Shown: in pieces, positions 20,850-62,944 of the stretch
Layout: each line of letters opens with the position of its first letter
How positions within the stretch are numbered: position 1 is the stretch's first letter
Source of the DNA: a virus
Taxonomy: Duplodnaviria > Caudoviricetes
IMG/VR virus record: IMGVR_UViG_3300028591_000071
DNA length: 64,000 nucleotides
Direction: 5' to 3' (one strand)
Translations under genes and position numbers: made by a program
The notes under the pieces: model-generated
Databases searched by the model: none
What the model saw: the letters and a program-made list of their open reading frames with translations, nothing else
What the model was told of the DNA's origin: nothing

Positions 20850-20884
20850 AAAAACAAGGGAGGGCTTGATGCTCTCCCTTTTTA
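20850..20884. terminator. Bidirectional terminator
   Basis: AAGGGAGGGC-TTGAT-GCTCTCCCTT-TTT. Confidence 0.75.
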
Positions 20885-21604
20885 TTTCATATAGTTGTTT
20901 ATGAATTCAAGCAAATCAGAATATCCGCTGTTGAATGCCATCCGTTCCCCAAATTCTTCGCAGAGGTCTTCTTCGTCAAAACCAAGCAGCCACCTGACGG
21001 CTTTCAGTTTTTTACCTTTGAATATTCCCGTTCCCCGCTGAGTGTCAAGCCTTCTCTGCTGCTTAATCCAATCAATGAGCCCGTGGCCACATTCATGCCA
21101 AAGACTTACCCTTATTTGGTCTATCACATCGTCGTAGGTTATGAAATCATCTTCATCTTCGAGCCATGACATTATAGCAGCCTTATTCACGGAAAATCTC
21201 ATGCAGCCATCACGCCTGACGCTTCTGTTCTGATACACAGCCACGCAGTCAGCGTAATATCCCGAAAAATCGTAACGCTTGTTGAACTTCGCCTTTATTC
21301 CGAATTGCGATAGATATTCGTTTATTAACTGGCATATTTGCGAGACTTCGTCATCGAAATTCTGTTCAACCATATCGGAAACCTCAGATTCGGCAATCAT
21401 CCTGACTGATTCATAGACCATTTTCCTGATGTCATCCTCACATAGGTCAATCTTGTGTTTTTCCTTTCTCGTGTAGGCTTTCTTGTTTCTCGTCTTGGTT
21501 GTCCTGAACACAGTCGGCTTACCGTGATGTTCGATGTCTTCCCGTCTTCTCTCAGCACCGTCACGCTTGATTATGTCTCTGTTTATGTCAGTCTTTTTCG
21601 GCAT
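20882..21604 (-). CDS. Fusion: ArfA-like basic peptide, shared targeting-like motif, HExxH domain
   Basis: HGKPTVFRTTKTRNKKAYTRKEKHK; LCEDDIRKMVYESVRMIAE; WHECGH. Confidence 0.6.
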   Translation of the reverse strand: MPKKTDINRDIIKRDGAERRREDIEHHGKPTVFRTTKTRNKKAYTRKEKHKIDLCEDDIRKMVYESVRMIAESEVSDMVEQNFDDEVSQICQLINEYLSQFGIKAKFNKRYDFSGYYADCVAVYQNRSVRRDGCMRFSVNKAAIMSWLEDEDDFITYDDVIDQIRVSLWHECGHGLIDWIKQQRRLDTQRGTGIFKGKKLKAVRWLLGFDEEDLCEEFGERMAFNSGYSDLLEFINNYMK

Positions 21605-22416
21605 TACTTAAGCGATTTGATATAGTTTATTATTCCGTCAACATGTGTCTTAATCACGGCTTCTCTTCCTGAGGCAGAAAGGATATACGACACATCGTCA
21701 GGGTTATCGTAGAAGAAATTTTCCGTAAGGACTGCCGGGCACAGAGACTTATAGATAACCGTGAAATTTGCCTCCCAATCCCTGTCTCCATCGGACATGT
21801 CTTTTCTTATAGCCCTTCCTTTGAAGTTTTTCTCCGCTTCGTCATAAAGTGCTTCAGCGAGTTTGTCGCTCTTCGTAGTACCCTTTGTCGTATACGCGCT
21901 CCACCCTTTAGCCTTCATCCATTCGCTTCCATTTCCTGCTGCGTTAGAGTGAATAGACACCAAGATGCAGTTTGCTGCGCCAAGTTTTTTACAGAAGGCG
22001 TTCACCCTGTTTGCCCTTTCTGTAAGGGATATGTCACTTTCTTCCTTTACGAGGAGTTCGGCATCGTATCCACGGCGTACCAATTCGTCAACAATCGGCT
22101 TTGCAATCTCCCTGTTCCACTTATATTCGTAGAACTCTATTTCAGGTTTAACCTTCGCAGCACACCAAGGACTTCTTTTTCCCGGCGTGTTCGTTCCGTG
22201 CCCGTTGTCTATGAGAATCTTTATATTTGACTTCTTTCCTGTCAGCGTTATTGTTTCTTCCGTTGTGCCGCTCTCTTCTTTGGGCTCTTCTTCGTGTATC
22301 GGCTCTGTGACGGTAATCGTTTCACCGCTTTCAACGCTTGGCTCAGATACGATTGGCTCCTCTTTCTTAAAGAGCCCTTTTATAAAATCAATTAACGCTT
22401 TAAACAAATTCTTCAT
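21604..22416 (-). CDS. N-acetylmuramoyl-L-alanine amidase (Amidase_3), endolysin
   Basis: ILIDNGHG..PGKRSP..E..LVSIHSNA..PAVLTENFF. Confidence 0.9.
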   Translation of the reverse strand: MKNLFKALIDFIKGLFKKEEPIVSEPSVESGETITVTEPIHEEEPKEESGTTEETITLTGKKSNIKILIDNGHGTNTPGKRSPWCAAKVKPEIEFYEYKWNREIAKPIVDELVRRGYDAELLVKEESDISLTERANRVNAFCKKLGAANCILVSIHSNAAGNGSEWMKAKGWSAYTTKGTTKSDKLAEALYDEAEKNFKGRAIRKDMSDGDRDWEANFTVIYKSLCPAVLTENFFYDNPDDVSYILSASGREAVIKTHVDGIINYIKSLK

Positions 22417-25009
22417 CTCCGTTCCTCCTTCTATCAACATCTATTATTGATTTGTAAATCTTGTTGAAATTTTCCCTCACCTGTACCTGTTCAGGATATA
22501 TAATCGATTGAACTATTTGCCCAATTTCAGGTTTGTTCGGATATGTAATAAAAACCGGATTTTTTGACCACGGCAGATAGCTAAATCTTATTTCTTTTCC
22601 ATTTCTCGTTGTCGTAAATTGAATTCCACCGTCATACGATTTTGACAAATCAATTCCATCCAGCAATATTCCATTCTGATTCGGAAGAAGGCTCGTATCT
22701 ATACCGTTTGTCTCAATATAGAAAAAACGATTATTGTCAATCACAGGAATATAAGCGTTGGCCGATATCCTACCACCTTGGATAATGTTCAATTTCTTTT
22801 TCAGAACGATATTCTTGTTTCCCATGATATATCCACCGGTAAGGTCTTGGTCCCAAATTACCCAAACTACGATGTTGGTGTCTGCTACGATTCCGTAAAA
22901 AACAGGCGTTTTTCTTCCACTAACCCCATTCAGAACACAAGTTCCATTGAAATAGTCGTACAAAGAAACATTATCTTTATCTTTTCCGAGATAAACGAGG
23001 CCGAGTTTTTCAAGTTGAGGAACCGTTCCATATACGCCAAATTCTCCTTCAATCGCAAACCTACCCGCTTCTATGTCAAATACATTTACATGGTCATTTT
23101 TGTCGGTAACAACGACATATCCATCATGTATATTTTGGTATGCCATCTTTTTGAACGGACCGAATATTCTTGGGCCATCCTGTCTGTCAAATGAGAATAT
23201 GTAAAAGTCTTTGCCCTCCGTTCTGCATGCCCAATAAAATCCCCTTGAAGTCATTGGTCTGCTGTAATCATCCACCGTATCACCGACCCATTTCCTATTG
23301 TCAATATCAAAGAAGCGGAAACCCGTAGAGTCTTCACATATTGCGAGGTCGCATGCCGTGGTCGAATACCATTCTATATCTTTGAATGGATGTTCAAAAA
23401 CAAATTTCTTTTCTTCAACGGAGTAGATATTCTTTCCCGGCTTTCCTTCAACGATAAAGAAATGGTCGTTGATTTTTTCGGCTATGTGGTAGTTGGCTTC
23501 GGATTCTGATTCAAGTTCATACTCAAAATATTGTCCTTTCGCACATAGTTTCCCTCCCTTCATGAACGGGGTAAAATAAGACTTTTCTGGCTTGTCATTA
23601 TGGATGAAGAAATCATATCCTTCGCTATCCATATAAAGAAGCCCGCGATTTCCGTTCACATATATCAATTCAACAAATGAGCCAGGATATGTGTTAAGTC
23701 CTGGGTTCGTTCCTTTATATTGGCGGATAAACGCCTCGATTGCTTCTGACGGTTCTACGCTTTCTATTGAAAAATCTGAATCCGCGTCTTCAAGTTCCTT
23801 TATCTTATACGGCCCATAGCCGCCATTTGCAGGGACAGCAAACACTTTACCCCCTCCCGTTGCTATAATATCAACTTCCCTTGAACATCTTATGGACAAA
23901 TCGTCTTCTTCTTCCCAATCAAAATAGGTTCCGCCCCATCGTCCGTCAGATTCTTCTCCGTAAACGAGAACCGGATATTCGTGATAATCTTTCAATATCG
24001 CTATCGGTTCGTCCGTGTTTGGATATGACTTTATGAGGAAGTCTTCGGGATTATATGGCGTATTCGGGAAAACGGAATCCGAATAGTCTTCGTTATCATA
24101 AAGAAACCAATTAACGCCGTCAATGTCGCAGTCATCATTTTCCTCAGGCATGAGGTCGAGATATCTTCCGTTATAATCGAGAACTCCGATTGCAGCGTTA
24201 ATCCTCTCTTCTTCGTATTCTATTCTTCTGCGTTCAGCGTCATTTTCCGGTCCGTTTTCTATTATTTCTCCGTATCTTTCATCCTGACTTCTGTAGAAAT
24301 CAACAACGCCCTCAGGAAAATCCATCTCAGAAATATTTACCCTGTGGTCGTACTTATCCATGAACTCGCCTGCCCAATTTTCCCATTCAAACAAGAATTG
24401 ATATCTTTTGTATGGGTATTCCTTGTTATCTTCAGGACATATTTCACTTCCCCGCCTGTCAAAATTAACCCAAAGAGGACCCTTTGATGAATATCTGTTA
24501 TAGTAATGCTGCCCATCTCCGAAAGCGCCAGCCGTACACCATTTGCACCCCTTTCCGAGTTTCTTTGCCGCCGGATATGAATGCGGGACGGCAATAGTCC
24601 ATTCGGGTGTATCATAAACGACGTCAAAGTCATTCTCTTCTTCGCTACCATCTTCCTTGTCAAGAACGGGGTCCACATCAGGAAGCATCTCAATCGCTTG
24701 TGCAACGCTTTTCATCGCATTAAGGTCAAGTCCTTGGCCGGCTCTCTCCTTGAAGAGTTTGAAAACCCTCTTCATCGTCTTATCTTTTATCGCTGAAAGT
24801 ATAACGTTTCTTTCGCTCTCCCAATGTATAAGAACCCAATTCGTGAAGTTTTTCTTCTTGGTCGGGTCTATCTCCAAAAGGTAGTTAAGAACTTCCTGCG
24901 GAACACCCTTTCCCTGTACGAACTTATATTCCATAGTCCGCTTTATCTCCTCGGGTGACTTCGCTTCGGCTATCAATCTATCGTAATATTCTTCAAGTCC
25001 TAAAATCAT
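22400..25009 (-). CDS. Large protein with a PcfJ-like domain and beta-repeat C-terminal region
   Basis: WTIAVPHSY.AA..LG..KWCTA..YQF; start MILGLEEYY after ACTATTTAT (25029-25037). Confidence 0.6.
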   Translation of the reverse strand: MILGLEEYYDRLIAEAKSPEEIKRTMEYKFVQGKGVPQEVLNYLLEIDPTKKKNFTNWVLIHWESERNVILSAIKDKTMKRVFKLFKERAGQGLDLNAMKSVAQAIEMLPDVDPVLDKEDGSEEENDFDVVYDTPEWTIAVPHSYPAAKKLGKGCKWCTAGAFGDGQHYYNRYSSKGPLWVNFDRRGSEICPEDNKEYPYKRYQFLFEWENWAGEFMDKYDHRVNISEMDFPEGVVDFYRSQDERYGEIIENGPENDAERRRIEYEEERINAAIGVLDYNGRYLDLMPEENDDCDIDGVNWFLYDNEDYSDSVFPNTPYNPEDFLIKSYPNTDEPIAILKDYHEYPVLVYGEESDGRWGGTYFDWEEEDDLSIRCSREVDIIATGGGKVFAVPANGGYGPYKIKELEDADSDFSIESVEPSEAIEAFIRQYKGTNPGLNTYPGSFVELIYVNGNRGLLYMDSEGYDFFIHNDKPEKSYFTPFMKGGKLCAKGQYFEYELESESEANYHIAEKINDHFFIVEGKPGKNIYSVEEKKFVFEHPFKDIEWYSTTACDLAICEDSTGFRFFDIDNRKWVGDTVDDYSRPMTSRGFYWACRTEGKDFYIFSFDRQDGPRIFGPFKKMAYQNIHDGYVVVTDKNDHVNVFDIEAGRFAIEGEFGVYGTVPQLEKLGLVYLGKDKDNVSLYDYFNGTCVLNGVSGRKTPVFYGIVADTNIVVWVIWDQDLTGGYIMGNKNIVLKKKLNIIQGGRISANAYIPVIDNNRFFYIETNGIDTSLLPNQNGILLDGIDLSKSYDGGIQFTTTRNGKEIRFSYLPWSKNPVFITYPNKPEIGQIVQSIIYPEQVQVRENFNKIYKSIIDVDRRRNGDEEFV

Positions 25010-52775: not shown

Positions 52776-53717
52776 CTATGCTGCAACGGAAAGTTTCACG
52801 AGATTTGCAAATCCGTCCTCAACCTTGCGGTGGTTCATACGGAAGCAGAACTCATCCATATAAGTCTGCATATGCTTAACCGATACATGGTGGTAGATTC
52901 CGTAGACACCCCTCTTGACGATTGCCCAAAACGATTCAATACCGTTGGTGTGCTTTCCGTCACCCTTGGAGAACTCAACCTCATGGTTCACCATGATACG
53001 AATGAAATTCTTCGTATTCTCAACCCTGCCTTCATCAATCACATTATAGCCACTATATTGGTCAGTCATAACAGTAGTACCTTCCTTGCAAGCATCGTTA
53101 AGTACCTTCAACAACTGTTTGCCCGTCAGTTTCTGCCCATTGGCATTTGCAGTAGCCACAACACAATGTACCCTGCCACTATTCCTTTCTTTAACACCAA
53201 TCACAGGTGTTTTGGAGGATGAACCCCTGCCACGCTTATTGAACTTCTCATTGGTTTCCCTTTCAAAGTGAACATTCTCCTTGCGAGGTTTGCCACCCAC
53301 ATAGGTTTCATCCACTTCAACAATGGCTTCAAAGCAATCCTTGTATTCCTCCTTGCCCATAATCTCACGGATAAGATGAAGCATACGCCATGCTCCCTTA
53401 TAGGATTTCATACCAAGTTCCCTCTGCAACTGACAAGCGGAGATACCCTTCTTGGCAACCATAACGAGGTTGATGGCGTAGAGCCACATACGGATGTCAA
53501 GATGGGTGTTTTCAAAGATGGTTCCCTTCAGTACGGAGAAATGGGATTTGCAGTTGTTGCAGTACAAATCCTTACCATTGTTGGCACTGTCACGGTAGAT
53601 GTTGTGAACACAACCGCAGAACGGACAGACATAAGGACCGTTGTACTTAACCTTGATGATGAAGTCAATGGCCGACTTCTCCGTGGGGAAACGCTTATGG
53701 AAATCAAAAATAGTCAT
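52776..53717 (-). CDS. IS1595-family DDE transposase
   Basis: CPFC..CNNC Zn ribbon; EVDETYVGG, TDQYSGY, VNH, HTNGIESFW. Confidence 0.93.
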   Translation of the reverse strand: MTIFDFHKRFPTEKSAIDFIIKVKYNGPYVCPFCGCVHNIYRDSANNGKDLYCNNCKSHFSVLKGTIFENTHLDIRMWLYAINLVMVAKKGISACQLQRELGMKSYKGAWRMLHLIREIMGKEEYKDCFEAIVEVDETYVGGKPRKENVHFERETNEKFNKRGRGSSSKTPVIGVKERNSGRVHCVVATANANGQKLTGKQLLKVLNDACKEGTTVMTDQYSGYNVIDEGRVENTKNFIRIMVNHEVEFSKGDGKHTNGIESFWAIVKRGVYGIYHHVSVKHMQTYMDEFCFRMNHRKVEDGFANLVKLSVAA

Positions 53718-54088
53718 AGTTCAAGTCCTTTAACCTAAATCTATGACTATATACCCTAAAAGTCCAGAATTCTTACAACACTAAAAGGGATAATTCCGAA
53801 TATTTGTTGAAAGTGCTGAAAGAATCTGTCATATCCCGAGTATGAGTAACTATGAAACTCCCGTTAAAAGTAGCCTCATGATAACACTCGACACTTTTCC
53901 GACTTTTTACGTCGAAAAGTGAAACTTTCTGTCGGGTGGCGCGTATATACTCATGCCTTCTGATTGGTAAAGGGTGCCTTTCAGTCGTAGAGTAGCCGGA
54001 CACGGTCCGGTGACGCCAACCGAGCTGCGGAATCAGCCGCGGTGGATCATTACCCGCTAGTATCAATAGAAAACCAAAACTATCTGCA

Positions 54089-54903: not shown

Positions 54904-56610
54904 ATGAGAAGCAAAAGAGAATCCACCATCTTTGAAGAGAAGAACTTCATTTCCGAGGACGAGACGGTCCAGACCCAGGCGGCATGCCTGAACCGCATTT
55001 ATCGTAAGGTAAATTCCACCGGCCTTTCCGCCGATACTATCCAGGAGCTCCGTGACGATATCGATTACGTCGCCGAGCGCTACCATATCGACAACCAAGG
55101 AGCGGTGCTTCTTGCCGCCATCCTCGAGAAGTCGGCCACCAACAACCTCATGGACGACGAGGACCTGGCTATGTATCTCGGCTGCACGAACATCGAGTTC
55201 ATCCGCTATCACAAGAAGCTTCGCGACATGGACAAGGCGGGAATCATTCAGATTGGCGGAGGTCGTGGCGGCCGTCGTTGCTATAGGGTGAGCCCGGAGA
55301 CGCTGAAGGCCGTTGAGAGCAACGGGGAGTTCAGCCCGGTAAAGATGTCCGGACTTACGACGGAGGAGTTCTTCTCCCGTTTCCGCAAGTTCTTCGGATC
55401 GTTCAGAAACGACACTATAGATGCAGATCGGCTTCTGGAAGAGCTGGATAGCCTGGTAAGCTACAACGACCATCTTTCCTTCTGCAAGAAAGCTTTGGAG
55501 TCTGCTCTCTACTCCGATTGCACCAACACGGAGCGCAGGATGTTCTATTACATCTGCCATCGCTACGTAACACACGGGAGCAAATCCGTGGATATCGAGA
55601 CTCTCACGAACTTCACCGAGTTCATGGAGGATGACGAATGCATCAAACGCCGCATCGCCAACGAGCATATGTCCATGCAGCGTAGCGGCCTTGTCAGCTT
55701 TGCCATCGAGGATGGATTCGTGGACACGGGCTCCTTGTCCCTTTCCGACAAGGTAAAGGCAGAGTTCTTCAACGAGGTAGTCTTGACCCCGGAGGAAACC
55801 GTTCGTCATCGCGATATCGTCAGCGCTGAAACCATCCAGGAGAAGGAGCTCTTCTTCAACGAGGCGGAGAGCGCCCAGGTAGCCCGCCTGGAGAACCTCC
55901 TTGACGCCGAGAATTTCAAGGAGGTGCAGAGACGTCTTCTCTCTACAGGAATGCGCAAGGGGTTCAATGCCATCTTCTACGGTGCCCCGGGCACTGGCAA
56001 GACCGCCAGCGTATACGAACTTGCCCGTCGCAGCGGCAGGGACATCTTCCGCGTGGACATGACCAAGCTCAAGAGCAAGTGGGTTGGTGATAGCGAGAAG
56101 GCGGTTCGTGGTGTGTTCAAGATTTACCGGGCTATGTGCAAGGGCAAGGAAAAGGCTCCCATCCTGCTTTTCAACGAGGCGGATGCTGTCTTCACAAAGC
56201 GTATAGAGAACGTCGAGCAGAGCGTCGACCAGATGAACAACGCCATCCAGAACATCATCCTGGAGGAGATGGAAAGCATCGAGGGCATCCTCATCGCCAC
56301 CACCAACCTCCTCTCCAACCTGGACCCTGCCTTCGAGCGCAGGTTCATCTTCAAAGTTGAGTTCAAGATGCCCGAGAAAGACTCCCGTGCCAAGATTTGG
56401 AAGTCCATGATTCCAGGTCTCTCGGATGAGGACGCGGCCGTTCTTGCCGACAAGTATGCCTTCTCCGGCGGCAACATCGAGAACATCGCACGGAAGAGCA
56501 CCGTTGAATATGTCCTTTCCGGGAACGAGCCCACACTTTCGTCCTTGGAGGGTTACTGCCAGGAGGAGATTCTAGACCGTAAGGAGAATCGCAACCGAAT
56601 CGGATTCTAG
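54904..56610 (+). CDS. AAA+ ATPase
   Basis: GAPGTGKT, LLFNEAD, TTN, LDPAFERR, C-terminal RIGF. Confidence 0.85.
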   Translation: MRSKRESTIFEEKNFISEDETVQTQAACLNRIYRKVNSTGLSADTIQELRDDIDYVAERYHIDNQGAVLLAAILEKSATNNLMDDEDLAMYLGCTNIEFIRYHKKLRDMDKAGIIQIGGGRGGRRCYRVSPETLKAVESNGEFSPVKMSGLTTEEFFSRFRKFFGSFRNDTIDADRLLEELDSLVSYNDHLSFCKKALESALYSDCTNTERRMFYYICHRYVTHGSKSVDIETLTNFTEFMEDDECIKRRIANEHMSMQRSGLVSFAIEDGFVDTGSLSLSDKVKAEFFNEVVLTPEETVRHRDIVSAETIQEKELFFNEAESAQVARLENLLDAENFKEVQRRLLSTGMRKGFNAIFYGAPGTGKTASVYELARRSGRDIFRVDMTKLKSKWVGDSEKAVRGVFKIYRAMCKGKEKAPILLFNEADAVFTKRIENVEQSVDQMNNAIQNIILEEMESIEGILIATTNLLSNLDPAFERRFIFKVEFKMPEKDSRAKIWKSMIPGLSDEDAAVLADKYAFSGGNIENIARKSTVEYVLSGNEPTLSSLEGYCQEEILDRKENRNRIGF

Positions 56611-56649
56611 GCGAAAGAATCCTCATTACAACTTGTATATAATACCACT

Positions 56650-57729
56650 ATGGCAAATATCAACGTTAATACAACCGAGCTGATCCAGCTCCTCGACATT
56701 ACTCCCGCCGACCACAATCTCATGCTGGTGGGCAAGCACGGTATCGGCAAGTCGGAGATTCTGACAGACTATTTCTCCAAGAAGGACATGCCCGTTGTGG
56801 CGCTCTTCTTGGGCCAGATGAGCGACCCGGGTGACCTCATAGGCATTCCCAACAAGAACGAAGAGACCGGCAAGACGGATTTTATGCCTCCTTACTGGTT
56901 TCCGCTGGATGGCAAGCCCATCGTCCTCTTCCTTGACGAACTGAATCGCGCAAGGCCGGAAATCCTCCAGACCATCATGGACCTGGCGCTTAACCGCAAA
57001 CTTGCCGGACGCAAACTCCCGGAGGGCAGCCGCATCATCAGTGCTGTGAATGCTGGTGACCAGTACCAGCTGACGGATCTTGACCCGGCGCTGGTCAGTC
57101 GTTTCAATATCGTGAACTTCCGTCCTACCGTGCAGGAGTGGTTGCTTTGGGCTCGCAAAGCCGATGTGGATGGCCGTGTCATCGACTTCATCCAGGAGAA
57201 CCAGATTTGGTTGGACAAAGACCCCGATGCGAAGGAAGGTGAAGATACCGGCCTGGACAAAACCCCTGACCGGCGCGGCTGGAAGCGTGTCTCGGATATT
57301 CTCAAGCAATCCGGGGAACTGAGCCCGCTGCTTACCAAGGCAATCTCTGCCGTTGTTGGCCCGAAGGCAGCCAGTGCCTTCGTCAGCAATGTTTCCAGCC
57401 GGAAGATAGTTTCCGGACGTGAGGTGATCCTGGGCTTCCCTAAGGTCAAGGAAAAACTGGACAAGTATGAGCTTCACCAGATCTCGGTGGTCAATGACGG
57501 CATCTACCGATTCCTTGAGGTTGAGAAGGTATCAGCTAAAGACAAGGAAACGGCCAAGAAGAACCTTGAGGACTACTTCTGTTATCTGACAAAGTCCAAG
57601 AAAGAGGCCGCAGCTCACTTTGCCAACCTCTTCGTCCAAAAGACGTACCCTAACGCCGTGGCGTTCATCGCAAGGGAGTGTCAGGTCCTGACTATGATGT
57701 TCATCTCCTACGTGAAAGGAATCAAGTAA
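56650..57729 (+). CDS. MoxR-like AAA+ ATPase
   Basis: GKHGIGKS, LFLDELNRA, DLDPALVSRF. Confidence 0.85.
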   Translation: MANINVNTTELIQLLDITPADHNLMLVGKHGIGKSEILTDYFSKKDMPVVALFLGQMSDPGDLIGIPNKNEETGKTDFMPPYWFPLDGKPIVLFLDELNRARPEILQTIMDLALNRKLAGRKLPEGSRIISAVNAGDQYQLTDLDPALVSRFNIVNFRPTVQEWLLWARKADVDGRVIDFIQENQIWLDKDPDAKEGEDTGLDKTPDRRGWKRVSDILKQSGELSPLLTKAISAVVGPKAASAFVSNVSSRKIVSGREVILGFPKVKEKLDKYELHQISVVNDGIYRFLEVEKVSAKDKETAKKNLEDYFCYLTKSKKEAAAHFANLFVQKTYPNAVAFIARECQVLTMMFISYVKGIK

Positions 57730-58914
57730 ATGAGGGATCGCATTACAACTATCCTGGAGCACTGGTTCATACAAGAGCCAGCGCTTTTCCAGGTTCTCTG
57801 TACCCACGAGCTTGTATCCAACACGCTGATGGAGTGTCCTGTCAGGAGCGGCAAGAGGCGCGTCGAGTATAATCCCGAGTATCTCCTCGAGATGACTGAC
57901 CAGGGACTGGAAGAGGCTCTCCGCACCGAGGCCGTGCGCATTCTGCTCAAGCATCCTTACGAGCGGAAGCCGGACGGATGCAGTCAGCAGGCTATCGCCA
58001 TAGGGTCCAATATCGTAGTAGGAGACAACTACAAGTATTCCGCCTTCAAGATCGACAAGCCGGCGGACTACGATCTGCCTGCCGGAATGGCCTATGAATG
58101 GTACTCCAGAAAGATTCAATCCATGCTGCCTCCGGGCGCCGGGGGTAACGGTGGGGAAGATGGAGATGACAACCAGAAGCCGGGACAAGGAACCGGGGAA
58201 GGGCGAAATGGTAGTCTGGATGACCGGTTTGAAAGAACATCGGACAAGAATCAGGACCTTTCCGAACTCTGGGACGAGGACGATCTGACGGTCGCCATGA
58301 TTAACGGAGTGATTGAAGGCTGCACATCCTGGGGCTCGCTTGCCGGTGCCTTCGCTGAGCAGCTCAAGGCTTCCACTAAGGCCAAGATTAATTGGCGTAA
58401 TGTCTTCAGCGGCTTCAGGGCGAGCATTCTATCTTCCAAGCGCAAGCTTACCCGTATGCGTCCGAACCGTCGCACTGGGTTTGAGAACATGGGCTCTATC
58501 CGTCGTTTCGATACCAAGCTGCTGGTGGCGGTGGACGTGAGCGGATCCATCTCCAGTGAAAGCCTAAGTTACTTCTACGGCGTTATCAATAGTGCTTTCC
58601 GTTACGGCTTCGAGTCCATCGATGTCATACAATTCGATTGTGGCGTGCGCGTGGTTCAGAGTCTCAAGAAGGTGATGCGTGAGGTGATCGCCATCGGCCG
58701 TGGCGGGACCAGTTTCCAGGAACCCATCGAGTATGCTCACGAGAATGACTACGATGGCCTGCTGATCCTGACTGATGGCTATGCTCCGGAGCCGATAATC
58801 CCTAACAATATGCGCTGCAAGATCATCTGGGTGTGCCAGGACAAGAACTGTTATGAGGCCCACCATCACTGGATGGAGAAATCCGGACGTGTCTGTACAA
58901 TTGAACTGCGATGA
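57730..58914 (+). CDS. vWA-domain partner of MoxR (DUF2201-like)
   Basis: MIDAS DVSGS..GGT..LTDG. Confidence 0.8.
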   Translation: MRDRITTILEHWFIQEPALFQVLCTHELVSNTLMECPVRSGKRRVEYNPEYLLEMTDQGLEEALRTEAVRILLKHPYERKPDGCSQQAIAIGSNIVVGDNYKYSAFKIDKPADYDLPAGMAYEWYSRKIQSMLPPGAGGNGGEDGDDNQKPGQGTGEGRNGSLDDRFERTSDKNQDLSELWDEDDLTVAMINGVIEGCTSWGSLAGAFAEQLKASTKAKINWRNVFSGFRASILSSKRKLTRMRPNRRTGFENMGSIRRFDTKLLVAVDVSGSISSESLSYFYGVINSAFRYGFESIDVIQFDCGVRVVQSLKKVMREVIAIGRGGTSFQEPIEYAHENDYDGLLILTDGYAPEPIIPNNMRCKIIWVCQDKNCYEAHHHWMEKSGRVCTIELR

Positions 58915-61585: not shown

Positions 61586-61768
61586 CCCGTCAGCTTAACA
61601 GAACCATTAACCAGGGATACAAAACGCTCCAATGGCGAAACCTACTACTGCAGCGAGCCTACATCCAATGTCGGGAAAGTAGGCCAGAAACGATGGAACA
61701 ACTGCGTTGTGAAGCACATAGATAAGGTTAAGTGACAAAAAATGATTAAATTTGAATTTATCATCTCA

Positions 61769-62074
61769 ATGGACAAAGCAAAACGAACAATGAAACCTAA
61801 AAAGAAACAGAAGAAACTCCGGATTACGGAGAGGGATTTCCTCCTGGCCAACCGAAGGGCGGCGAGGATCGAGGAAATCGAAGCGCATGGCCGGCCGGTT
61901 TCATTCCGGGGGGCTATCCACAAGTCCAAGAAGGTCTACAATCGCAAAGCACTGAAAAGGCAGGCATCTGATGATGACCTGCCTTTATCATTGACGTCTG
62001 TCTCTCCTTCCGCTCGGGTCACGGATGACGATTTCGTTCAGGAACGCATCCAGATCTCCCTGGAACTCCGATAA
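61769..62074 (+). CDS. ArfA-like alternative ribosome-rescue factor candidate
   Basis: HGRPVSFRGAIHKSKKVYNRK; TAAATTTG -7 box at 61747-61754; internal hairpin at 61956-61986 before the stop. Confidence 0.55.
   Translation: MDKAKRTMKPKKKQKKLRITERDFLLANRRAARIEEIEAHGRPVSFRGAIHKSKKVYNRKALKRQASDDDLPLSLTSVSPSARVTDDDFVQERIQISLELR
61956..61986. terminator. Hairpin/terminator inside the ArfA-like ORF and at the end of the convergent gene
   Basis: AAAGGCAGG-CATC-TGAT-GATG-A-CCTGCCTTT. Confidence 0.65.
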
Positions 62075-62944
62075 GTCATAGAGGACAGGAGTCAGTTGGT
62101 GGCAGACGCTGATAGCCACATACCTACGTCCAGTCAACGGGAAAACCCATACCATCTTATCCGGGTTATTATGGACCCGCAGCGGCTCTCCGAACCGATT
62201 CTTCAGGGCATTGACGGAGTGATAGCCGCAGCAGTCCGCACCGATAGTCTCCAGGTCACGCAGTTTCTGCGCTCCATCGATATGCCAGGCATCACCTAGG
62301 CAGAGCCATTCCGGAACGCATTCACGGTACTTTCGCAGTGTCCGGTGGAACGGGGCCCCGACACCCGTGAAGTTGGTCCAGTTGCCTGCGAATCCCCAGC
62401 ACTGGATGAAGCAGAGCATCTTCGGGGCAAGACCCCGGCTGCAGTAGAGCTGCTGGAACGTAGCGAGTCCCTCGCCGCAGACGAACAGCAAAGAGAACCG
62501 CTCGGGACCATGTTCCTCGCCTCGGTCGGCATTACGCTCGAACACGACCCAATGGGCGAAATGGGCAGGACCGTCCTTTGTTCCAAGGAAGGAATCCCAG
62601 TAGTGGGGACTGGCCATGGGCTCCGGACGAGCCTCGGGTGAAACCATCTCCAGATGCCAGTCGGCCGGGATGTACTCCTCCCGGCGGAGGCTGCGGTGGC
62701 CAAGTACATGATAGCCCAGCACCGTCCTCGTGTCACGGATGTATTCCACCTCCGACACGTCGAAATCGCAGTACACGAAGCTATTGATGCCCAGGCTCCG
62801 CCAAAGGGTGTTGCACAAACGGATGGGCCGTCCGTCGGTACGGCTGGCCGGGTAATAGAGAGAGTCTTTCAGCAGGTCGTCCATTAGGACGGAGCCGCGA
62901 GCGATGCGGTCGGGAGTAAGGTCGTTCAGTCTCATAGCAACCAT
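61988..62944 (-). CDS. Hypothetical protein
   Basis: SLYYPAS.DG.P..FVYCD..RFSLLF..EG.ATF..LY pattern. Confidence 0.6.
   Translation of the reverse strand: MVAMRLNDLTPDRIARGSVLMDDLLKDSLYYPASRTDGRPIRLCNTLWRSLGINSFVYCDFDVSEVEYIRDTRTVLGYHVLGHRSLRREEYIPADWHLEMVSPEARPEPMASPHYWDSFLGTKDGPAHFAHWVVFERNADRGEEHGPERFSLLFVCGEGLATFQQLYCSRGLAPKMLCFIQCWGFAGNWTNFTGVGAPFHRTLRKYRECVPEWLCLGDAWHIDGAQKLRDLETIGADCCGYHSVNALKNRFGEPLRVHNNPDKMVWVFPLTGRRYVAISVCHQLTPVLYDLSEFQGDLDAFLNEIVIRDPSGRRDRRQ

Follow-up and report, generated by a model that had tools for sequence, protein, structure and literature searches.

Only two genes, arfA and brfA, are known to follow a non-stop design, and both encode ribosome rescue factors (PMC6881298). 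BrfA (YqkK) of Bacillus subtilis is an RF2-dependent alternative rescue factor; its gene of 71 codons contains an internal rho-independent terminator, yields a product of about 62 amino acids, is repressed by trans-translation, and encodes a protein without obvious similarity to other Arf proteins (PMC6881298). ArfT was described in Francisella tularensis, a host without ArfA and ArfB, and such rescue factors arise independently (PMC6299226). ArfA itself (YhdL, PF03889) is found in gamma- and beta-proteobacteria; no ArfA-type factor is known in Bacteroidota, and arfA was present in 0 of 1,956 FCB-group genomes in a published survey (PMC11633108). Here, we report a small gene at positions 61790 to 61960 of a viral DNA record of 64,000 nucleotides (Caudoviricetes; the whole stretch analyzed is called the window below), together with a family of homologs in Bacteroidales, in which a hairpin followed by a T-run is often placed inside the reading frame and in front of the stop codon.

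The family resembles ArfA in its non-stop mRNA design, made with a hairpin inside the ORF, in the variable, unconserved stop downstream, and in a C-terminal tail that is rich in Lys and Arg and has a comparable local pattern. It differs in that it has no match to PF03889 at E <= 1, is without the KGKGS motif (where the alignment has a gap of 3 residues), and has a terminator-like T-run after the stem, whereas E. coli arfA is cut by RNase III. A first-pass annotation of this DNA had proposed an ArfA candidate; taken as a claim of ArfA homology this was not supported, i.e., Pfam, NCBIfam, and the PDB gave no match, and the hhalign probability was 0.5 to 1.8%. Against E. coli ArfA hhalign gave a probability of 0.5 to 0.6%, and one targeted comparison with an ArfA alignment made of enterobacterial sequences only gave 1.8% (P = 0.028), with 42% identity over 26 columns. 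In that alignment, the family residues IEAHGRPVSFRGAIHKSKK, a three-residue gap, and VYNRKA are set against ArfA, the shared pattern being FRxxxxKxKK...YxRK. The matched part of ArfA lies in the mRNA channel in ArfA-ribosome structures. The 42%-identity tail match is suggestive only and may reflect homology, convergence, or composition.

BrfA is the closer likeness in layout. Both are small ORFs in stand-alone genes with a rho-independent-type terminator inside the coding region, both give a product of about 62 to 67 amino acids from a non-stop mRNA (predicted for the family) without detectable similarity to other Arf proteins, and both coexist with the tmRNA-SmpB system. They differ in phylum, no sequence relationship was found between them (no relevant chain in the PDB sequence searches), and about half of the close relatives have probably lost the internal terminator. 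ArfT, set beside the family by description, is likewise a small lineage-restricted peptide without ArfA homology (PMC6299226). Two marks of the ArfA/BrfA-type class are found in the family, i.e., a conserved in-ORF hairpin before the stop, with 45 of 88 close relatives being without it, and a length of about 55 to 70 amino acids with a basic tail near the presumed mRNA 3' end.

Coding core and in-frame hairpin of the window gene

The features of the locus are given below with their positions in the window.

61742..62074, + strand: mechanical ORF of 110 amino acids, from the ORF finder listing
61747..61754, + strand: -7-type promoter box TAAATTTG, 35 nt 5' of the likely ATG, from reading of the sequence
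61790..61960, + strand: conserved coding core of 57 amino acids, MKPKKKQKK...SKKVYNRKALKR, from the homolog alignment
61953..61990, both strands fold: in-frame hairpin with extended stem, encoding QASDDDLPLS on the + strand
61984..61992, + strand: U-rich stretch TTTATCATT 3' of the stem, where the + transcript presumably ends, from reading of the sequence
61991..62074, + strand: read-through tail to the first stop, unconserved outside the closest relatives
61988..62944, - strand: convergent ORF of 318 amino acids, from the ORF listing, of no known family

The Bacteroidetes -7 promoter consensus is TAnnTTTG, with which TAAATTTG at 61747-61754 agrees. A strict box of this type was present in 11 of 100 upstream regions of homologs and is not general in the family. 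The first 16 codons of the mechanical ORF lie 5' of the box or across it and are unconserved. ATG 61790 is most likely the true start because the homolog N-termini align on MKPKKK; it lies downstream of TAAATTTG, and the sequence 5' of it is unrelated among homologs. As a separate observation, four loci with the hairpin (L003, L005, L006, and L007) have a common motif, TTTTGCATCTATAGG, about 30 to 45 nt 5' of the ATG, with GCAAC about 20 nt further up; this region is probably the small gene's own promoter in these rumen lineages.

Conservation among homologs spans MKPKKK to ...Y(D/N)RKxLK(R/K). In the window, the C-terminal letters of the core are KSKKVYNRKALKR, and the conserved stretch finishes with ...HKSKKVYNRKALKR at 61960 (...YNRKALKR). 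Per-site differences among 103 distinct sequences amount to 0.15, 0.08, and 0.43 at codon positions 1, 2, and 3, and the core is therefore protein-coding and under purifying selection; a reading of the locus as a non-coding RNA was rejected on the same pattern. The encoded peptide has about 57 to 67 residues, with a Lys-rich N-terminus, one amphipathic helix, and a Lys/Arg-rich tail (...HKSKKVY(D/N)RKxLK(R/K)), and the predicted product up to the U-tract is about 65 to 67 amino acids long. An AlphaFold2 model of a homolog of 67 residues (locus L005; mean pLDDT 74) shows a basic N-terminus, a helix at residues 14-33, and a second helix at residues 47-57 that covers SKKVYDRKRLK; the loop between the helices holds the invariant HG(R/K)P. 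The small protein is thus modeled as an extended peptide and not as a globular fold. Foldseek found nothing in the PDB at E <= 0.001 with this model, which is expected because the model is a two-helix peptide of 67 residues.

The 13-bp core of the hairpin is formed by 61956-61968 and 61973-61986, with a bulged A at 61977 and a 4-nt loop, TGAT. It overlaps the K-R codons at the end of the core, and the frame continues through it as QASDDDLPLS. The hairpin by itself has a predicted free energy of about -21 kcal/mol; in its 81-nt context, the + strand reaches -30.6 kcal/mol (z = -5.2), and 0 of 200 shuffles were as stable. The - strand of the region has z = -4.1, and no shuffle folded as well. 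A simple terminator consensus scan of the region made no call on either strand, because of the bulge and because most of the T's are paired with the upstream A-run, and the Rfam search returned no family at the hairpin. Most homologs have TTTTTT tracts, and the U-tract TTTATCATT of the window is weaker than these.

The first in-frame stop on the + strand is TAA at 62072-62074, 27 codons past the hairpin and antisense within the convergent ORF 61988-62944. The four sequence elements pointed out in the first-pass annotation, i.e., the promoter box, the basic region ending YNRKALKR, the 13-bp hairpin within the reading frame, and the late stop antisense in the convergent gene, are all present. 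The read-through tail is common only to relatives with the same convergent gene; other tails diverge right after the hairpin-encoded residues. In the closest relatives (L097 and L100), the 3' end of the convergent ORF is conserved along with the small gene. The 318-aa product of this ORF has no match in Pfam, NCBIfam, or PHROG.

The stop codon of the convergent ORF (61990-61988) abuts the base of the hairpin, and the window hairpin is therefore placed to work in both directions. This position and the weak + strand U-tract speak for a simpler reading, i.e., that the gene encodes an ordinary small basic protein (nucleic-acid-binding or accessory) and at its 3' end only happens to overlap a terminator that is compact and often works in both directions, no control by tmRNA being involved, with most transcripts including the stop or with the few C-terminal residues being irrelevant. 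We regard this reading as rather unlikely for reasons that come from the family as a whole and are given below. The non-stop design is likely for the window copy and less certain there than for the family, given the weak U-tract and a hairpin that also fits the convergent gene.

Hairpin and stop position across the family

Hairpin and stop position were analyzed in 107 distinct loci. A strong hairpin was found in 53 of them, with -15 to -27 kcal/mol, starting 5 to 8 nt past the RK codons and having the typical form GAAGAAGGCAGGCATC...GATGACCTGCCTTTTTT. Among the close relatives, 43 of 88 distinct sequences have the hairpin and a T-run at the equivalent codon position. Most of the distant Bacteroidales members (37-54% identity) also carry hairpin and T-run at the same codon position, with stems that differ (GGCAGAT/ATCTGCC, GGCAGAG/CTCTGCC, and GGCAGATGCC/GGCATCTGCC); in two loci (L192 and L193), the stem sequences are unrelated to those of the other members. 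In an alignment of 48 sequences, 89% of the cells are paired, versus 24 to 56% when the partners are slid by one to three columns; both partners have changed in eight of the 13 pairs, and values as high as these came up in 0 of 500 shuffles. At the protein level, only the stem-encoded residues (A... LP) are conserved, and the loop-encoded residues vary. This covariation indicates that the hairpin is under selection as RNA.

The stop codon starts 6 to 355 nt past the G/C stem in all 52 hairpin loci with a stop within reach, and in none of the 52 does a stop lie before or inside the stem. Intrinsic terminators release the RNA 7 to 9 nt past the stem. In 44 of the 52 loci, the stop lies 12 nt or more past the stem, i.e., beyond the release point of an intrinsic terminator; in the other eight, it lies only 6 to 9 nt beyond, and these stops might be included in some transcripts, as the ordinary-protein reading would have it. 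That reading, on the other hand, has to explain why an in-frame terminator, which is costly unless selected, has kept its codon position in distant members whose stems differ and covary, why none of the 52 hairpin loci has a stop in front of it, and why the frames run on into neighboring genes.

About two-thirds of the hairpin loci have a convergent gene downstream, and at least six have one that runs in the same direction. Family-wide, the hairpin is a feature of the small gene. Its persistence beside co-directional downstream genes means that, for the family, it is not the terminator of a convergent gene alone, and this persistence tells against the ordinary-protein reading as well. For the window copy by itself, a hairpin that ends only the convergent gene is conceivable. 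We therefore hold with considerable confidence that the non-stop design is a selected feature of the family. The built-in non-stop architecture put forward in the first-pass annotation is borne out in this sense, i.e., by a conserved in-frame hairpin and an unconstrained stop; no hairpin-bearing homolog places its stop ahead of the stem, and a hairpin serving only the convergent gene does not agree with the co-directional loci.

The expectation that homologs would show a hairpin before an unconserved stop was confirmed in 52 of 52 hairpin loci and did not extend to 45 of the 88 distinct close relatives, which have no hairpin and end at a normal stop 7 to 14 codons past YDRK. These stop-bearing proteins end, for example, in ...LKKQVPED or ...KRMEQKLSDKSE directly before the stop, and what comes after is in many cases a conventional terminator or the next gene. 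That half of the close relatives manage with a normal stop is again a point for an ordinary small protein. On a poorly resolved tree of 54 columns, the hairpin trait needs about eight changes, of which at least two are forced by supported branches, and the window's own clade of 10 contains both states. Loss of the hairpin seems the likelier direction because the distant members mostly carry it. The hairpin-less close relatives, together with the phage copies described below, imply that the non-stop gate is dispensable for the protein.

A frame without its own stop also explains a number of longer relatives, in which the module appears "fused" to a cyclophilin, a GH43 glycosidase, a metallophosphoesterase, or a GNAT; in one further case, an upstream aminotransferase reads in frame into the module. 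In the cyclophilin, GH43, and metallophosphoesterase chimeras (three clearly readable cases), the downstream enzyme keeps what appears to be its own signal peptide. In a Parabacteroides isolate (L227 1501-2397, + strand; protein P0464), the module is separated from the cyclophilin's own start by a hairpin with z = -4.6 and by a U-rich tract. The "fused" proteins are read-through artefacts of the stop-less frame. Real domain fusions were considered and rejected, the downstream enzymes being unrelated and having their own signal peptides. In public annotations, P0464, P0398, P0442, and P0257 each appear as one protein made of the stop-less ORF and the enzyme encoded downstream, with an internal signal peptide.

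In some loci (L043 and L227), the ORF is translated through the terminator, with a co-directional next gene within a few tens of nt, as would be expected if the peptide were the leader of a transcription attenuator and translation through the hairpin controlled read-through into the downstream gene. This appears very improbable to us. The downstream genes are unrelated between loci and convergent in about two-thirds of the hairpin loci, which is not the arrangement of a leader peptide; a basic peptide of about 57 amino acids under strong purifying selection is unlike leader peptides; and the stop-bearing and phage copies do without any hairpin.

A conserved operon partner was sought across the loci and none was found. 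GNAT, TM1586-type nitroreductase, RNase T-like exonuclease, and Rep3 genes recur as neighbors, each in a minority of loci. Within the stop-bearing subgroups, a GNAT acetyltransferase gene lies directly 3' in about nine loci (including L010, L016, L020, L041, and L048 at +26 nt after YDRK), and an RNase T-like DEDD exonuclease gene lies directly 3' in three to four loci (L026, L073, and L078); these pairings with the stop-bearing gene are apparently two-gene operons.

Carrier genomes and phage copies

Clustering at 90% identity gives 693 clusters of relatives; at 50% identity, 871 were found among 1.84 billion representatives. There are 251 matches in GTDB species genomes, almost all of them rumen or gut Bacteroidales MAGs, at least 403 in metagenomes, and 11 in viral contigs. 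The small protein has no match in Pfam or NCBIfam at E <= 1, and PHROGs gave none for the window protein, the phage paralog, or a jumbo-phage copy. The PDB sequence searches with family profiles returned nothing in one case and one chance match (E = 2.5) in the other. The spread is patchy, i.e., 15 of 301 Bacteroidales genomes and 14 of 81 genomes of one ArfB-less GTDB family, and some MAGs hold several copies; such an accessory distribution would also suit the ordinary-protein reading.

The gene lies near the right end of the window, whose composition changes along its length. Further features bear on its setting.

20882-21604, - strand: ORF of 240 amino acids, whose N-terminal 50 amino acids (21455..21604, - strand) are a paralogous module, from the family HMM match
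21604-22440, - strand: Amidase_3 endolysin gene
52776-53717, - strand: IS1595-type DDE transposase, just left of the GC step
54904-58914: AAA, MoxR-like AAA_5, and VWA/DUF2201 genes, right of the GC step, in the GC-rich 10 kb

The GC content is about 0.40 up to a step near 54 kb (at about 53800-54000) and about 0.53 beyond it, and the small gene sits in the GC-richer segment, which agrees with the earlier description of the gene as host-like. The step could be a phage-host junction or the result of a chimeric assembly.

A phage-borne homolog starting at 21604 had likewise been suspected, and the homologous module is the N-terminus of the ORF 20882-21604. The family HMM matches it with E = 2.4e-6 (in a small local search), and it is 34% identical to the window core (alignment A3). 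Past the module, the ORF continues into a domain with an HECGH (HExxH-like) motif, for which the Pfam matches are weak and sub-threshold (DUF4344 putative metallopeptidase and Astro_VPg). The ORF lies directly downstream of the endolysin gene. Jumbo-phage contigs of 100 to 435 kb hold stand-alone copies of 72 to 80 amino acids with ordinary stops and no hairpin.

SmpB was found in all five and tmRNA in four of the five carrier genomes searched, and ArfB, RqcH, and PF03889 in none of them; the PF03889 search of these five gave noise only, with nothing at the small gene. ArfB was also absent from 50 further carriers, none of the roughly 70 carriers searched in all had it, and the ArfB model (NF006718) matches only RF1 and RF2 in carriers. 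The small protein, with its 57 to 67 amino acids, has no GGQ domain and thus falls outside ArfB. Among 301 evenly sampled Bacteroidales genomes, ArfB is present in 100, the family in 15, and both in none; ArfB in 0 of 15 carriers versus 100 of 286 non-carriers gives a Fisher P of 0.002, a value that ignores kinship among the genomes. RqcH is in none of the 301. In the GTDB family of one carrier, none of the 81 genomes has ArfB, be it with or without the small gene; the exclusion between ArfB and the family is confounded by phylogeny because the absence of ArfB is at least partly clade-level. Please note that most genomes without a known back-up are also without the small gene. With SmpB and tmRNA present and ArfB, RqcH, and PF03889 absent, a genomic need for a back-up in the carriers is plausible.

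Two side observations concern the translation machinery of carriers. In small-genome rumen carriers (G001, G002, G004, and G011; L178, L179, and L198), prfB is read in one frame from residue 1, and in most other Bacteroidales (L199-L226), the match begins at about residue 20-23. The latter is the expectation for the programmed +1 frameshift of prfB, and by these reading frames the small-genome rumen carriers seem to have lost it. The other observation is the ARAGORN tmRNA tag in two carriers (L195 1503-1897 and L196 1503-1899, both - strand), which is read as GNYNYSYAC directly before the stop. The common ending of tmRNA tags is ...ALAA, beside which this one is unusual. The reading GNYNYSYAC may come from a mis-set resume codon or may be a real lineage-specific tag.

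Proposed function

We consider a back-up ribosome-rescue factor the best single explanation of the small peptide, on the basis of analogy and distribution, and we see the case for it as about evenly balanced. Size and layout match BrfA closely, which makes the role plausible by analogy. In the mechanism that we infer, the gene's own intrinsic terminator hairpin, placed inside the frame and directly after the basic tail, would end transcription, and transcripts ending there would carry no stop codon, so that the ribosome would stall at the 3' end. tmRNA-SmpB would rescue the stalled ribosome and tag the peptide for degradation. Peptide made while trans-translation fails would then act as the back-up factor: on the model of ArfA and BrfA, its basic tail would probe the vacant mRNA channel, and its helix would recruit a release factor. 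The complex prediction of the L005 product (alignment A6) with RF2 of the same genome (alignment A5) gave a score of 0.00, which speaks neither for nor against such recruitment.

The evidence from architecture would be the same if the gate were real and the peptide did something other than recruit a release factor, i.e., if it served another response to failing trans-translation or acted as an unstable regulator, for example a ribosome-silencing or hibernation-type peptide, an RNA- or DNA-binding regulator, or a growth-arresting peptide held low by tmRNA tagging. The family has no detectable homology to ArfA or BrfA, and some of its members stand in unobvious places for a rescue factor, i.e., at the N-terminus of an HExxH-type phage protein beside an endolysin, and with ordinary stops in jumbo phages. 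Such another function is nevertheless unlikely in our view, since the only known genes of this design, arfA and brfA, are rescue factors (PMC6881298), and since the size, the basic tail right before the 3' end, and the occurrence only in ArfB-less genomes fit rescue best.

For the back-up rescue factor, a more specific proposal can be made, and we offer it tentatively, as possible and somewhat short of probable. The family would be the first RF-dependent alternative rescue factor of Bacteroidota, with an evolutionary origin separate from ArfA, BrfA, and ArfT, and the terminator inside its ORF would place it under the control of trans-translation. Jumbo phages of Bacteroidales would have acquired copies that carry a stop or are fused, and these copies would free ribosomes stalled on cut mRNAs independently of tmRNA during infection.

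The stop-less frame exposes a systematic annotation error, an example being the "cyclophilin" merger in the Parabacteroides isolate. About two-thirds of the 301 sampled Bacteroidales genomes have neither ArfB nor RqcH; the rescue role, if true, would fill part of this back-up gap in dominant gut and rumen bacteria when trans-translation fails. It would also be the third or fourth example of convergent evolution of a non-stop switch, and it would bear on the use of trans-translation inhibitors as antibacterials. The phage-borne copies hint at ribosome rescue as a battleground between phage and host.
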